The notes beneath the pieces are model-generated. The model saw only the letters and a program-made list of their open reading frames with translations, did not search any database and was not told the DNA's origin. Shown here piece after piece: positions 60,375 to 63,697 of a stretch of 64,000 nucleotides of DNA. A program made the translations under genes and the position numbers. The DNA is from a virus, in the IMG/VR virus record IMGVR_UViG_3300017963_000239, positions 1-64,000 of that record. One strand, given 5' to 3'. Numbering within the stretch: the stretch's first letter is position 1; each line of letters begins with the position of its first letter.

Positions 60375-60419
60375 ATGGCACTCGCATCGGTCAACAGAGT
60401 CAGGTACGTCCGTGCCTAA
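60375..60419 (+). pseudogene. orphaned N-terminus of the baseplate J-like gene
   Basis: MALASVNRVRYV then stop vs MALASVNRVRFV at 61427. Confidence 0.85.
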
Positions 60420-61446
60420 GAAAGCGGATCTTCTAGGACGCCGATTTGGGCGGCTCCTTGTGGTGGCTGCAGCACCCAATCAGGGTAGGTGCACGGTTTG
60501 GGAAGTGCGGTGCGACTGCGGGGCCACGAAAGAGGTGCGCACGGATAGTCTGCGCAGCGGTAACACTAGCTCTTGTGGTTGTCTTGTAGGTCAGGGGATG
60601 AGGAAACACGGGGAGGCTCGCAAGACCGCTGAGTACACAGCGTGGCAACTGATGAAGCAAAGAGCGGGGGCGTCCAAAGGGCGCATCTGCGTAGCTTCTC
60701 GCTGGAAATATTCCTACGGGCACTTCTTGGAGGACATGAGGCGGAAATCAGATCCAGACGCCACTTTGGATCGTATCGATTCGGATGGGCACTATGAGCC
60801 GGGGAACTGTCGCTGGGTGTCTCGAACGCAGCAAGCGCAGAATATCCGATCGAACAGACTCCTAGAGCACCAAGGGGAGATCAAGTGCTTGACGCAGTGG
60901 GCGCGAGAAGTTGGATTGGCAGTGACTACAATATCGGGACGTTTGGGGCGTGGGTGGTCGGTGGAGCGAGCGCTGGAGACGCCGCCGACTCATGGGACCT
61001 TCAAGCGGAAAGGTTCGCTGAAAAACGAGTACAGCGCGGAATACTCGACTTGGTCGCAGATGAAAGCTCGTTGCTACAACCCAGACCACAAGAATTTCCC
61101 TACATACGGAGGGAGCGGAGTGAAGGTTTGCGGGCGCTGGAAAAAGTCGTTTGAGTGTTTCTTGGCAGACATGGGGCGCAGGCCCTCGGCAAAGCACTCT
61201 CTCGATCGAATCGACGTGCGGAAGGGCTATTCGCCTGAGAACTGTAGATGGGCCGACGCACGAACGCAGCAGCGCAACCGAAGCAACAACCGCCTCATAA
61301 CTTTTGAAGGTCAGACTCGGTGCCTTCAAGAGTGGGCAGAGCGTCTTGGTATTGATCATCGCGTGATACGATCTCGCCTGCAACGGGGCTGGGACGAAGC
61401 TGTCGCGCTTACCACTGAGGTGTCCAATGGCTCTCGCATCAGTTAA
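60412..61446 (+). CDS. tandem HNH-like homing-type endonuclease
   Basis: DLLGRRFGRL, CDCG, two LDRID..Y.P.NCRW..Q..N units. Confidence 0.85.
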   Translation: MPKKADLLGRRFGRLLVVAAAPNQGRCTVWEVRCDCGATKEVRTDSLRSGNTSSCGCLVGQGMRKHGEARKTAEYTAWQLMKQRAGASKGRICVASRWKYSYGHFLEDMRRKSDPDATLDRIDSDGHYEPGNCRWVSRTQQAQNIRSNRLLEHQGEIKCLTQWAREVGLAVTTISGRLGRGWSVERALETPPTHGTFKRKGSLKNEYSAEYSTWSQMKARCYNPDHKNFPTYGGSGVKVCGRWKKSFECFLADMGRRPSAKHSLDRIDVRKGYSPENCRWADARTQQRNRSNNRLITFEGQTRCLQEWAERLGIDHRVIRSRLQRGWDEAVALTTEVSNGSRIS

Positions 61447-63697
61447 CCGTGTTCGTTTTGTCGGTTTTGACTTCGACACCCACGTGGATGATCTGCGAGC
61501 GCGCTTGCAGGTCAAGTTCGCAGCGTACTACAACGACTTCGCCCTGGCGTCGTTGGGCATGATGCTGCTCGACATGATCGCCTACGGGCTCGACTCGCTC
61601 AGCTTCTACCTGGATCGTCGTGCTACCGAGGTCTACCTTACGACGGCGCGGACTCGTAAGGGCGTCGCCCGTATCGCCCGCCAGCTCGGCTACAAGATGG
61701 GCGGCGCAGTAGCGTCCTCGACAGACCTGACAGTCAGCGTTGTCACGGCTCAGTCCTATACGGTGTCCATCCCCGCTGGATTTCAGTTCGAGGGGCCGAA
61801 TGACTTGATCTTCGAAGCCGGCGAGGCGGTAGAGTTTTCTCCGGCGGAGCAGACTGCGGGGACCTCGAAGCTCGTTCCTGTCTATGAAGGCGAGTCGGTG
61901 TCTGAGACGATCACCTCGGACGGTACAGCCAATCAGGTGTACGAGCTAACGCGTTTGCCGGAGGGGAAGAACGTGGCTTCCGGCTCTGTCGAAGTTTCTG
62001 TGGATGGGGTCTCCTTCAAGGAAGAGGACTTTCTCAAATTCGAGGAGACCGATCAGTACGAGGTAGGGTACAACGACGATCCTCCTACCGTGCGGTTCGG
62101 GGATGGCACCGCGGGGAACATTCCAGCCACCGGCGCTTCGATTGTTCTTTCCTACGTAGCTACGTCGGGCAAGGCGGGCATCGTGGGCAAGGAGACCATC
62201 CAGGCCGCCGTCACGCCGTTGGTCGTAGGAGGCGATACAGTCGACTTGTCCATCAACAACGTGAAAGGGTCCTCAGGCGGAGACGACTTGGAGTCGTTGG
62301 ACCACGCCAAGTCGTTCGCTGGCCGCGTGTTCAACTCTCGCCGGGTGGCAGTCACGAGAGAGGACTACGACGCGCTGGCGGGTTCGTATGCCGACCCTGT
62401 GTATGGTCGTGTGGCGGTGGCGCAGGCCATCTCGTCGCGTTCGGCGGCCACGGACCTCGTGCTGCAGGACGCCATCTTGGCTATCACCAGCGCGTTGGAG
62501 GGGGCGGTAGACACCATCCGGGATGAGATCTCCGACGCGACGACGGCCACCACGGGCACGTTGAACCAGATCTTGGACTTCTCCTCCACGATCTCTTCGG
62601 CGCTGGACAACATCGTCACGGCGGTGGGGACCATAGACACCAACGCAGCTGCTTTGCTTTCAGGCGTCCGAGCCAACCGGAATCTGTCGTTGGAGGTCGA
62701 CGTCGATGCCGACACTTCGAAGACCCACGTCACGGACGGTAAGGCGCTCGTGAATGGCTTCACGGTAGGCAGCCCTACGGTGATCACTACGGTGGATCGA
62801 GATGCCGTTTTGGCCTACTTCAACTCGATCGACACGTTGCAGGACTCCATCGTGTCTAAAGCAGCGACGATGAAGGGGTCATCCGATACACAGATTGGGG
62901 CCATCGGCCTGGTGAACGACGAGATCGACAAGATCGGTCTAGCCAAGACGTCGCTGCAGATCGACGGCTCCGACTCCTATCTGAAGAGCGCCGAGGACTC
63001 CCGAGCTTCCATCGACGTCATCGTGGGCTTCTACGACAGCGCCGACCCCACATCGAGCACGGGACTGTTCCGGACTTTCAACTTCACGTTGGAAGGCGTA
63101 GCAGACGATCTCGACCCCAGCGAGGCGGGCGCCACGTCCACCACGGTCTCGGAGAACTTGACCATCATCGACGAGCACGTGGACAAGATCTTGTCTGCTG
63201 ACTGCAAGGCCAATCTCGTGACGGTGCCCATCCTGGTTCGTGACGCGGCAGGCTTCTACACCGCGCCTAGCAACGGTCTCGTGGGGTCATTGGAGGACTA
63301 CCTGAACGTCCGGAAGGAAGTCACTCAGACGGTGGAGGTGGTGTCGGGGGGCAAGTTCTTGATCTACCCCACTATTGCAGTACGTGTCGGCGTGAATCAG
63401 GGCTACTCGCTGGAGCAAACGAGGACCGCGGTGGAGACGGCGATCGACGGGGTGCTGAAGGACCGGGAGTTCGGTGACTCGCTGTACGTGTCCGATCTCA
63501 TCCAGGTCGTTTTGGGCGTGGAAGGGGTGGGGTTCACCAACGTCACGATCTCCGGCTACACGACTCTGCTCGACTCCACGGTGCAGACCGCTAAGCTGGA
63601 TTCTGAGGGCAATTTGATCATCGAGACCTCAGAGGTCATCACCAAGACGCCGGGAGCCGTGACGGTTACACCCGAAGCCATTCAGGTGGAGGCTTGA
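61427..63697 (+). CDS. baseplate J/gp6-like wedge protein
   Basis: DFD..L, IARQLGY, VRFGDGTAGNIP, SGGDDLES, AVTREDY. Confidence 0.85.
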   Translation: MALASVNRVRFVGFDFDTHVDDLRARLQVKFAAYYNDFALASLGMMLLDMIAYGLDSLSFYLDRRATEVYLTTARTRKGVARIARQLGYKMGGAVASSTDLTVSVVTAQSYTVSIPAGFQFEGPNDLIFEAGEAVEFSPAEQTAGTSKLVPVYEGESVSETITSDGTANQVYELTRLPEGKNVASGSVEVSVDGVSFKEEDFLKFEETDQYEVGYNDDPPTVRFGDGTAGNIPATGASIVLSYVATSGKAGIVGKETIQAAVTPLVVGGDTVDLSINNVKGSSGGDDLESLDHAKSFAGRVFNSRRVAVTREDYDALAGSYADPVYGRVAVAQAISSRSAATDLVLQDAILAITSALEGAVDTIRDEISDATTATTGTLNQILDFSSTISSALDNIVTAVGTIDTNAAALLSGVRANRNLSLEVDVDADTSKTHVTDGKALVNGFTVGSPTVITTVDRDAVLAYFNSIDTLQDSIVSKAATMKGSSDTQIGAIGLVNDEIDKIGLAKTSLQIDGSDSYLKSAEDSRASIDVIVGFYDSADPTSSTGLFRTFNFTLEGVADDLDPSEAGATSTTVSENLTIIDEHVDKILSADCKANLVTVPILVRDAAGFYTAPSNGLVGSLEDYLNVRKEVTQTVEVVSGGKFLIYPTIAVRVGVNQGYSLEQTRTAVETAIDGVLKDREFGDSLYVSDLIQVVLGVEGVGFTNVTISGYTTLLDSTVQTAKLDSEGNLIIETSEVITKTPGAVTVTPEAIQVEA

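Follow-up and report, generated by a model that had tools for sequence, protein, structure and literature searches.

Why does a phage carry the first codons of a baseplate gene twice, in two different spellings, with a nuclease gene between the two copies? This question is raised by a locus in the last part of the window, by which we mean the whole stretch of DNA analyzed here (64,000 nucleotides of the IMG/VR virus record IMGVR_UViG_3300017963_000239). A short remnant of a gene start, which we call the stub, is followed there by a nuclease gene and then by a complete baseplate gene, J, with its working start (Table 1).

Table 1. Features of the W-J locus, in positions of the window
Feature	Position	Strand	Evidence and remarks
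gp25/W-like baseplate wedge gene (W)	59943..60365	+	Pfam GPW_gp25, E 5.7e-15; upstream flank of the insertion site
Original ribosome-binding site of J, AAGGA, now serving the stub ORF	60364..60368	+	Read from sequence; 6 nt before the ATG at 60375
Stranded old J start (stub), MALASVNRVRYVRA followed by a stop	60375..60419	+	14 codons; matches the J start of L001 at 33/36 nt
Free-standing putative homing-endonuclease gene, 344 aa	60412..61446	+	PHROG 3377 and 374; PacI-like fold match
Ribosome-binding site of the working J, GAGGTG, inside the nuclease coding sequence	61417..61422	+	Read from sequence
Working baseplate wedge (gp6/J-like) gene, 756 aa, MALASVNRVRFV...	61427..63697	+	PHROG 219; TIGR02243 sub-threshold
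Donor-derived tract of J, codons 1 to ~28-32	61427..61522	+	23/84 nt differ from L001
Recipient-type (L001-like) patch of J, resuming past the donor tract	61511..61588	+	1 mismatch to L001 in 78 nt

The preliminary description of this locus had reported an old J start stranded before the nuclease gene, and a diverged copy that overlaps the 3' end of the nuclease gene and begins the intact gene; the coordinates confirm both. The ATG of the stub lies 9 nt past the stop of the W gene, and between its 12 J codons (60375-60410) and its TAA stop (60417-60419) there are two codons from the junction. The stub stop and the start of the nuclease gene, a GTG that aligns with the ATG of its homologues, overlap by 8 nt, and the nuclease 3' end and the working J start overlap by 20 nt. 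The stub, the nuclease gene and J each use a different reading frame and are connected solely by overlapping stops and starts. The two J starts encode the same first ten residues, then Tyr in the stub and Phe in the working copy, then Val in both. At the DNA level they are identical at 26 of 36 nt, with seven of the 12 codons differing (six silently and one by the Tyr to Phe change), and ten random substitutions would change at most one residue with a probability of ~2e-5. Codons 1-5 of the two copies differ at only 2 of 15 nt. Apart from this pair, and setting aside tRNA-like and low-complexity sequence, translation of the window in six frames revealed no long peptide repeat.

The interrupted gene is best read as encoding a gp6/J-like subunit of the baseplate wedge. 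It matched PHROG 219 ('baseplate wedge subunit', E 4.5e-35) as well as TIGR02243, the latter below the cut-off (85.7 bits against 155.8; E 2.7e-24). The gene order V-W-J is present, and the position of J after the gp25/W gene fits a gp6/J-like wedge protein. The earlier name 'baseplate J' needs correcting in this sense; we found no match to the Pfam family Baseplate_J.

The nuclease matched PHROG 3377 and 374 ('HNH endonuclease') in two stretches with E-values of ~1e-91, and searches of Pfam, NCBIfam and PDB sequences yielded no match for it. In its AF2 model (pLDDT 89.7), a beta domain with CxC...CxC forms the N-terminus. It precedes a tandem of two PacI-like His-Me finger repeats, and behind each repeat comes a helical module resembling DNA-binding ones. 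The best fold match was PacI (3m7k_A; VIA-align), with a Z-score of 7.1, which is below the level of a safe fold match, and an rmsd of 2.1 Å over 75 residues, the alignment covering residues 67-147 of the model. Foldseek returned no PDB match for the nuclease at E up to 0.001, and 3ldy_A at a probability of 0.44 only. Both repeats keep D-R-I-D, a Tyr and two Asn (Y128, N132 and N144 are invariant). In PacI, a Tyr stands in for the catalytic His, and the 'group 20' His-Me finger proteins are mostly viral, lack the catalytic His and use an omega-loop Tyr with Asp/Asn metal ligands (PMC4081073, PMC5714182). PacI is the closest structural counterpart of the repeat unit, and in this unit a Tyr, an Asp and two Asn are invariant. 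PacI acts as a homodimer on a palindrome, whereas the window's protein joins two repeats in one chain and would suit an asymmetric site. These features indicate a putative tandem PacI-like His-Me finger nuclease.

Third codon positions of the nuclease gene have a GC content of 0.62, compared with 0.75-0.83 for the neighboring genes, which suggests a foreign composition. A blastn search of the phage collection found no relative of the locus; the only match was a 167-nt segment of the nuclease gene, in Pseudomonas D3-like phages.

We then compared the locus across relatives, as the preliminary description had proposed. In about 21 syntenic relatives without the nuclease, the W stop is directly followed by the J start (within about 0-10 nt), which confirms the empty site. 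The nuclease was found at the W-J junction in only two of about 23 lineages, namely the window and a second phage lineage, the L004 type, which is present in three samples and shows the stub, the nuclease and the working start in the same order. In L004, the ribosome-binding site of the working J is GGAG, at the same relative position as GAGGTG in the window, and the frame offset from stub to nuclease is +2 rather than +1. The window stretch itself is identical in contigs from two runs of two studies, either of which may be the source sample. An assembly artefact is ruled out by these identical contigs together with the recurrence of the layout in the second lineage. Nuclease-free relatives, diverged and seen at contig level, occur in the same samples as the window.

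The nuclease ORF occupies all but a few nucleotides of the insert. A group I intron was ruled out, as Rfam gave no relevant match in 59500-62500 at E up to 10. An intein, or a frameshift fusion of stub and nuclease, was likewise ruled out by the three differing frames, the different offset in L004 and the lack of a Hint domain. We also screened about 150 loci with this nuclease family for a peptide duplicated on both flanks (9-mers with at least eight identities; the null maximum was seven). The only positives were the window, the L004 type and L061, which suggests that the end-replacing layout is occasional for this nuclease family rather than its habit.

Comparison with L001, the closest relative without the nuclease, reveals a mosaic. 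The stub differs from the J start of L001 at only 3 of 36 nt. Codons 1-28 of the working J match L001 at 61 of 84 nt, and the match rises to 77 of 78 nt in codons 29-54 (4 of 96 nt differ over nt 85-180 of J). The contrast between codons 1-28 and the L001-like flanks is significant (p 9e-6, about 1e-5; Fisher test). It extends to codons 13-28, which are not duplicated: 13 of their 48 nt differ from L001, all silently (p 1.5e-4; Fisher test). Over the whole gene, the divergence of J from L001 is 0.237. In codons 29-60, window and L001 are 96% identical, compared with 74-84% for all other pairs. Since codons 13-28 are as diverged as the duplicated ones and the sequence on both sides is 92-99% identical to L001, the working start belongs to a foreign donor tract. 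The last donor-type mismatch to L001 falls at nt 84 or 96 of J, so that the tract consists of codons 1-12, which form the replacement start, plus a co-converted stretch of ~48-60 nt on their right. Eight of 13 donor-tract codons end in T, against 14% across the J gene. The relatives yielded no donor allele for this tract; L097 (88%) and L105 (86%) came closest, over codons 15-28.

With L001-like sequence in the stub and in codons 29-54, and diverged codons 1-28 between them, these results indicate that the nuclease and ~85-95 nt of foreign J start entered an L001-like allele, as expected for homing with co-conversion of the donor flank. The gene is thus a chimera in which the native fragment resembles a close relative and the working end is foreign. 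Just upstream, the W gene is only ~70% identical to L001. Set against the short L001-like patch (J codons 1-54), this points to further recombination events, whose order is not assignable.

The second carrier provides a view of how the stub arose. The stubs of the window and L004 differ at 13 of 36 nt and at one residue, a pattern never reached in random trials with 12 substitutions (0 of 200,000), and their divergence is at the level of the working genes (pS 0.66). This indicates that the two stubs were captured separately, from genes that were then working, and that the stub is re-made from each recipient. The nuclease copies of the two lineages are 69% identical at the amino acid level (pN 0.21, pS 0.74), which indicates purifying selection, and the next-closest homologues (P0003-P0005) are 52-59% identical. 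The nuclease is therefore older than its insertion in the window, and maintained. The number of independent carrier lineages is two.

Based on these comparisons, we consider it likely that the locus represents a mobile homing-endonuclease cassette of an end-replacing kind, made of a nuclease gene, a ribosome-binding site at its 3' end and the foreign first codons of J. A J allele lacking the nuclease gene would be cut by the enzyme at some point in codons ~12-30. Of the two broken ends, the left one (W and J codons 1-12) would pair with the stub of the donor and the right one with the donor J, and gap repair would copy in the nuclease gene together with the donor J start. The first 12 J codons of the recipient would stay upstream as a dead stub, and the working J would be a chimera of donor start and recipient body, intact without splicing. 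As the old site would be split and the new one differs in sequence, the carrier would probably no longer be cut. The divergence of the two start copies would also hinder loss of the cassette through recombination between repeats. The stub ORF probably drives translation of the nuclease by coupling, because it ends on the nuclease start codon, and expression of J would now rely on the ribosome-binding site inside the nuclease gene.

The silent differences between the two starts had been read in the preliminary description as immunity of the target site, that is, as recoding selected in place. Such a scenario, in which 12 J codons were duplicated on the spot and then silently recoded under selection against self-cleavage, would account for the Phe11 common to both carriers and for the private changes of L004, which are clustered at codons 12-14. 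At residue 3, stub and working copy agree within each genome but not across genomes, with Leu in both copies of the window and Thr in both of L004. This observation and the near identity of codons 1-5 in the window are also compatible with duplication on the spot or with gene conversion of one copy by the other. However, selection acting on a duplicate does not explain the equal, entirely silent divergence of codons 13-28 between L001-like flanks, which points to an imported tract. Nor are the codons regarded as 'recoded' (CGT for Arg, for instance, and those ending in T) linked to the nuclease: they are also found in the nuclease-free L087, L089 and L098, and no nucleotide of the window's working start was absent from every nuclease-free relative. 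Moreover, ten changes in the working copy against at most three in an unconstrained stub would require very strong selection. We therefore consider recoding in place unlikely, and the silent changes are best viewed as ordinary differences between donor and recipient alleles. What tracks the nuclease is non-silent only: the change of Tyr11 to Phe (TAC to TTT), seen in both carrier lineages and in one of 21 nuclease-free relatives, and the three private residue changes of L004 at the junction. It is nevertheless reasonable to think that the working copy may be immune to cleavage, these residue changes being the only indirect signs that the nuclease would spare its own genome.

Alternatively, the nuclease could have been inserted once, long ago, then inherited vertically and precisely lost in most relatives, leaving decaying stubs and an immobile nuclease. 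The layout and the overlaps are alike in both lineages, and divergence between the nuclease copies roughly equals that between the flanking J genes (69% and 73% amino acid identity), which by itself could likewise result from old vertical inheritance followed by losses. This scenario is nonetheless improbable, even more so than recoding in place. The stubs diverged as coding sequences do rather than as decaying ones, the nuclease is under purifying selection, and both the stub and codons 29-54 are far closer to the nuclease-free L001 than the age of the nuclease permits. The J protein of the window, likewise, groups with L001 (81% identity) and not with the carrier L004 (73%). Least probable of all, and very much so, is that a formerly mobile nuclease has been domesticated and is kept for a function of the phage, such as cutting the baseplate gene of co-infecting relatives or regulating late genes. 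Such a role would agree with the strong purifying selection, with a tandem architecture that is intact in two lineages, with the placing of the gene among the overlapping reading frames of the late operon, and with the habitat shared with nuclease-free relatives. But none of these separates domestication from ordinary homing, in which competitors' markers are excluded anyway, and the occurrence of the gene in two of about 23 lineages argues against its being essential.

The end-replacing architecture, with a nuclease between the displaced native end and a diverged working end, is found in the window and in L004 alike, and it has counterparts in eukaryotes. The WHO elements of Torulaspora and Lachancea yeasts reside at the aldolase gene FBA1, and the logic of their rearrangement was shown experimentally (Coughlan et al. 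2020, eLife, PMC7282813). As proposed here, they combine a nuclease gene with a replacement end of the target gene, while the old end is displaced as a fragment that serves as homology for recombination; the working gene is a chimera with discordant ancestry across the cut, and no splicing is involved. Unlike in the window, the 3' end is replaced instead of the 5' end, the setting is nuclear DNA of meiotic diploids, and the nuclease is an unrelated, intein-like LAGLIDADG-zinc-finger protein. Allele-specific cleavage and resistance were demonstrated experimentally for the WHO elements; for the window they are predictions. Similarly, mobile endonuclease ORFs (mORFs) of fungal mitochondria make gene hybrids in Allomyces macrogynus (atp6) and Glomus (atp6, atp9, cox2 and nad3; Beaudet et al. 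2013, PMC3630166). There too, an endonuclease ORF carries a foreign gene terminus, diverged mainly at silent sites, and the native remnant alongside resembles close relatives. The mORFs differ from our locus by replacing the C-terminus rather than the N-terminus, by their LAGLIDADG or GIY-YIG nucleases, by their organellar genomes and by often being fused in frame to the host gene, in place of the three separate frames observed here. The nuclease of the window has no match to the Pfam LAGLIDADG, GIY-YIG or Hint families and its predicted fold is a His-Me finger, so the likeness to WHO elements and mORFs appears to be one of mechanism, not of family.

Among phages, the closest comparison is with the seg and mob genes of T4-like phages, free-standing homing endonucleases, including the HNH members MobA and MobE, that spread by intronless homing (Edgell et al. 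2010, PMC2988022). Like the gene studied here, these lie outside introns, occur between conserved genes in some phages but not in others, and are propagated through break repair that co-converts their flanks. In contrast, they are intergenic and cut hundreds to thousands of bp away; no gene is interrupted and no replacement end is carried. The concept of end replacement is established in yeast and in fungal mitochondria but hardly described in phages, so that what is added here is breadth (phages, 5' ends and a new nuclease type) and not a new principle.

The comparative evidence is unusually clean, since an empty-site relative bounds the imported tract to within ~12 nt. The locus also offers a compact test system, in which one protein and three short DNA substrates would address the protection of the carrier and the reading of an asymmetric site by a single-chain tandem PacI-like nuclease. 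For the annotation of phage genomes, short 'orphan' ORFs and overlapping starts may be expected at more sites.

It is possible, though we regard it as doubtful for now, that end-replacing cassettes are a general and as yet unnamed strategy by which homing nucleases of phages establish themselves within essential genes. If so, the carried gene end and its ribosome-binding site would provide disruption of the site and self-immunity as introns do, without splicing, and careless deletion would kill the phage, the expression signals of the essential gene lying inside the element. The element would also drive escape-type variation at the attacked codons; variation in J residues 11-14 is confined to the clade in which the nuclease circulates (FVGF, FISY and YVAA, against YVGF or YAGF elsewhere). 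The same genome also has nuclease genes next to broken and intact tRNA genes, and these would then represent the strategy as applied to RNA genes. For the phage studied here, our results suggest that a homing nuclease can occupy an essential structural gene with neither intron nor intein, by bringing along a spare gene start.

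The window, 64 kb from the start of an IMG/VR viral contig of 81.9 kb, has a G+C of about 61% and carries about 50 tRNA genes and one tmRNA gene; the insertion lies within its tail/baseplate operon. The operon runs from a tape-measure-sized ORF through a gpV-like spike, a Leu/Pro-repeat ORF and the gp25/W-like wedge gene (W) to the stranded start (stub), the nuclease and the working wedge gene (J). The duplicated J N-terminus proposed in the preliminary description, with a stub before the nuclease and a working start overlapping the nuclease 3' end, was confirmed in its coordinates and its similarity (26/36 nt identical). 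Seven codons differ between the two copies, six silently and one by Tyr to Phe; at most one residue change is improbable for ten random substitutions (P ~2e-5). As for the baseplate J label, PHROG 219 assigns the product to gp6/J-type wedge proteins, but it has no match to Pfam Baseplate_J.

Features of the insertion site and its upstream neighbours in the window
Feature	Position	Remark
Spike protein with gpV OB domain	58601-59560	
Leu/Pro-repeat ORF, 121 aa	59566-59931	between gpV-like spike and gp25-like gene
gp25/W-like wedge gene (W)	59943-60365	
Stub, 14-codon ORF MALASVNRVRYVRA	ATG 60375, stop 60417-60419	AAGGA upstream, 9 nt past W stop
Nuclease ORF, 344 aa	60412-61446	GTG start inside stub stop region
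Ribosome-binding site of J, GAGGTG	61417-61422	inside nuclease gene
J, 756-aa wedge protein, N-terminus MALASVNRVRFVGFDFD	start 61427	20 nt before nuclease stop

The Leu/Pro-repeat ORF consists almost entirely of LPGLPALP-type repeats and two copies of TIDLPFPSIPFPSLSLPG, and its reverse strand is also open because of these repeats. Its position and sequence are kept in all close relatives (L001, L004, L085, L087, L097 and L105); it has no Pfam match and a weak PHROG match to a family of unknown function.

The stub stop and the nuclease start overlap by 8 nt in the window and are separated by 2 nt in the second carrier lineage (L004), and the nuclease stop falls 17-20 nt inside J in both. The reading frames of W, stub, nuclease and J thus seem to be coupled in a chain. 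The nuclease gene contains the ribosome-binding site of J, so J would be inactivated if the nuclease were imprecisely deleted. An intron was rejected, since an Rfam search of the locus returned none and the ORF occupies the whole insert. Programmed frameshifting and inteins were excluded because stub, nuclease and J lie in three different frames and the stub-nuclease offset is unequal between the two carrier lineages.

We gathered relatives by scanning viral and metagenome contigs with J. This yielded about 21 nuclease-free relatives (J identity from 81% down to 38%), in all of which the W stop is directly followed by the J start and the N-terminal motif R-V-R-Y-[V/A]-G-[F/L]-D-F-D is retained. 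A nuclease at the W-J junction was found in only one further lineage, identical in DNA across three samples (L003, L004 and L092), with the same order: a stub (MATASVNRVRYVGVQ, then a stop), a nuclease of 345 aa, 69% identical to that of the window, and a working start (MATASINRVRFISYDFDS) overlapping the nuclease stop. J identity places the window with the nuclease-free L001 (81%), not with the carrier L004 (73%). Contigs of two runs (X1 and X2; window 60285-61740) reveal, in the samples with this phage, at least two diverged relatives at similar depths (6 and 10 versus 8.8), in which W and J are linked by about 100 and 291 letters instead of 1157 and 1363. Nuclease-free junctions in the phage's own samples imply that potential recipients share its habitat.

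The comparison with L001, the nearest nuclease-free relative, delimits a foreign tract. Relative to a gene-wide nucleotide divergence of 0.237, mismatches to L001 number 3/36 nt in the stub and 1/78 in J nucleotides 85-162, versus 23/84 in working codons 1-28, including 13/48 in the unduplicated codons 13-28 (tract versus flanks, P = 9e-6; Fisher's test). Over J codons 29-60 the window and L001 are 96% identical, versus 74-84% for every other pair. The composition agrees with an imported tract: GC3 is 0.62 in the nuclease gene versus 0.75-0.83 in its neighbours, and 8/13 codons at the J start end in T versus 14% across the whole gene. Three nuclease-free relatives (L087, L089 and L098) have CGT Arg codons and codons ending in T at matching positions, and no nucleotide of the window's working start is private to it when compared with all nuclease-free relatives. 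These patterns indicate that the working start was imported, not recoded in place. The simplest history would be that an L001-like allele gained the nuclease gene together with about 85-95 nt of foreign J start in a single event, through homing in which about 50-60 nt on the right side were co-converted. In a short patch around the insertion (window 60375-60410 and 61511-61588 versus L001:4001-4162), J codons 1-54 are about 95% identical over a background of about 70-76%, and W directly upstream is only about 70% identical. This L001-like patch around the presumed cut site could be a trace of earlier break repair among nuclease-free phages.

The two stubs differ from each other at 13/36 nt and one residue, a pattern absent from 200,000 trials of 12 random substitutions. 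This divergence matches in size that of the working genes of the two lineages (pS 0.66, pN 0.19), which indicates that the stubs diverged while still functional gene starts. Each stub resembles a nuclease-free relative: L001 for the window and, for L004, L085 from the same sample (2/21 nt differ over codons 6-12). Over these codons the two working copies differ from each other at 5/21 nt and from their own stubs at 8 and 10/21. Such a pattern is as predicted by recurrent homing, in which the recipient's sequence would be retained left of the cut and the donor's would be installed on the right, and argues that each recipient supplies its stub anew.

Searches of Pfam, NCBIfam and PDB sequences with the nuclease gave no match. 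PHROG 'HNH endonuclease' families match it over two stretches (E ~1e-91), and more than 5,000 homologues were found. An AF2 model (47 sequences; pLDDT 89.7) presents a CxC...CxC-bearing beta domain at the N-terminus and a compact unit occurring twice, each followed by helices. Foldseek returned nothing significant with this model; the best VIA-align match, over model residues 67-147, was PacI (3m7k_A; a modest Z of 7.1, rmsd 2.1 A, 75 residues). PacI-type His-Me fingers are mainly viral and lack the catalytic His, employing an omega-loop Tyr together with Asp/Asn metal ligands (PMC4081073, PMC5714182). Y128, N132 and N144 are invariant across the nuclease family and both repeats carry a D-R-I-D motif; the protein is probably a single-chain tandem PacI-like enzyme. 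Its divergence between the two carrier lineages (pN 0.21, pS 0.74) indicates maintenance by selection.

Among about 150 loci of this family, duplicated flanks were found only in the window, the L004 type and L061. In L061 (3744-4990; IMGVR_UViG_3300033463_000080), a single-repeat member (4004-4663) follows a helicase-like gene ending in AIYRKIGAEIER and its stop, and a short ORF over the nuclease's 3' end reads MTYYRKMGAEIEKENREWV to its stop. Here the helicase-like gene is duplicated at its C-terminal end (8/9 identities versus a null maximum of 7). The arrangement resembles the replacement of a C-terminus, with the native one stranded downstream, and is of the opposite kind to the window's.

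The extent of the donor tract places the predicted cut site in the region of about codons 12-30 of the empty J allele. Both carriers have Phe11 (TTT) and 20/21 non-carriers have Tyr (TAC or TAT), for a chance of about 0.012 of Phe in both. In L004, codons 12, 13 and 14 also carry private changes at their first and second positions (FISY versus YVGF), and the nuclease-free L098 has YVAA at residues 11-14, which elsewhere are constant down to 38% identity. This variation, confined to the clade with the circulating nuclease, hints at escape. At its insertion site (L098:564-640; Ga0180434_10194793), L098 reads YVAADFDTN versus the conserved YVGFDFDTH, with T-rich third positions, and its W shares 78% identity with the W of L004. 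This allele may be resistant by nature, or may once have carried the cassette and lost it. The earlier proposal that silent changes confer target-site immunity is only partly supported, since the tract was apparently imported, its codons occur in non-carriers, and the changes that correlate with the nuclease are non-silent.

At least eight HNH ORFs lie among the tRNA genes of the window, and at 22041-22637 the same order of stub, nuclease and working copy was observed on an RNA gene. A lone 32-nt tRNA-Ala 5' fragment (22041-22072), corresponding to the 5' half of the tRNA-Ala-CGC gene at 23341, is followed by an HNH ORF (22087-22578) of PHROG HNH families other than those of the baseplate nuclease. 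This ORF runs at its end into an intact tRNA-Ala-GGC at 22566.

T4-type free-standing endonucleases are intergenic and cut at a distance (PMC2988022), and we found no description in the open-access literature of a stub-nuclease-replacement-start layout in phages. In the proven case of the yeast WHO elements at FBA1, the nuclease gene moves together with a replacement end for the target gene that confers resistance; the displaced end of the recipient gene turns into the fragment of homology, and the evolution of the target gene is chimeric (PMC7282813). The rearrangement in the window matches this model, as well as gene hybrids from fungal mitochondrial mobile ORFs (PMC3630166), although in both of those systems 3' ends are replaced and the nucleases are unrelated to the window's. 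The cassette in this phage's baseplate gene is real and well delimited, and is of the end-replacing homing kind, with cleavage predicted at the empty J allele. The kind of cassette is already known; its combination of a phage, a 5' end and a predicted PacI-like tandem nuclease is new.
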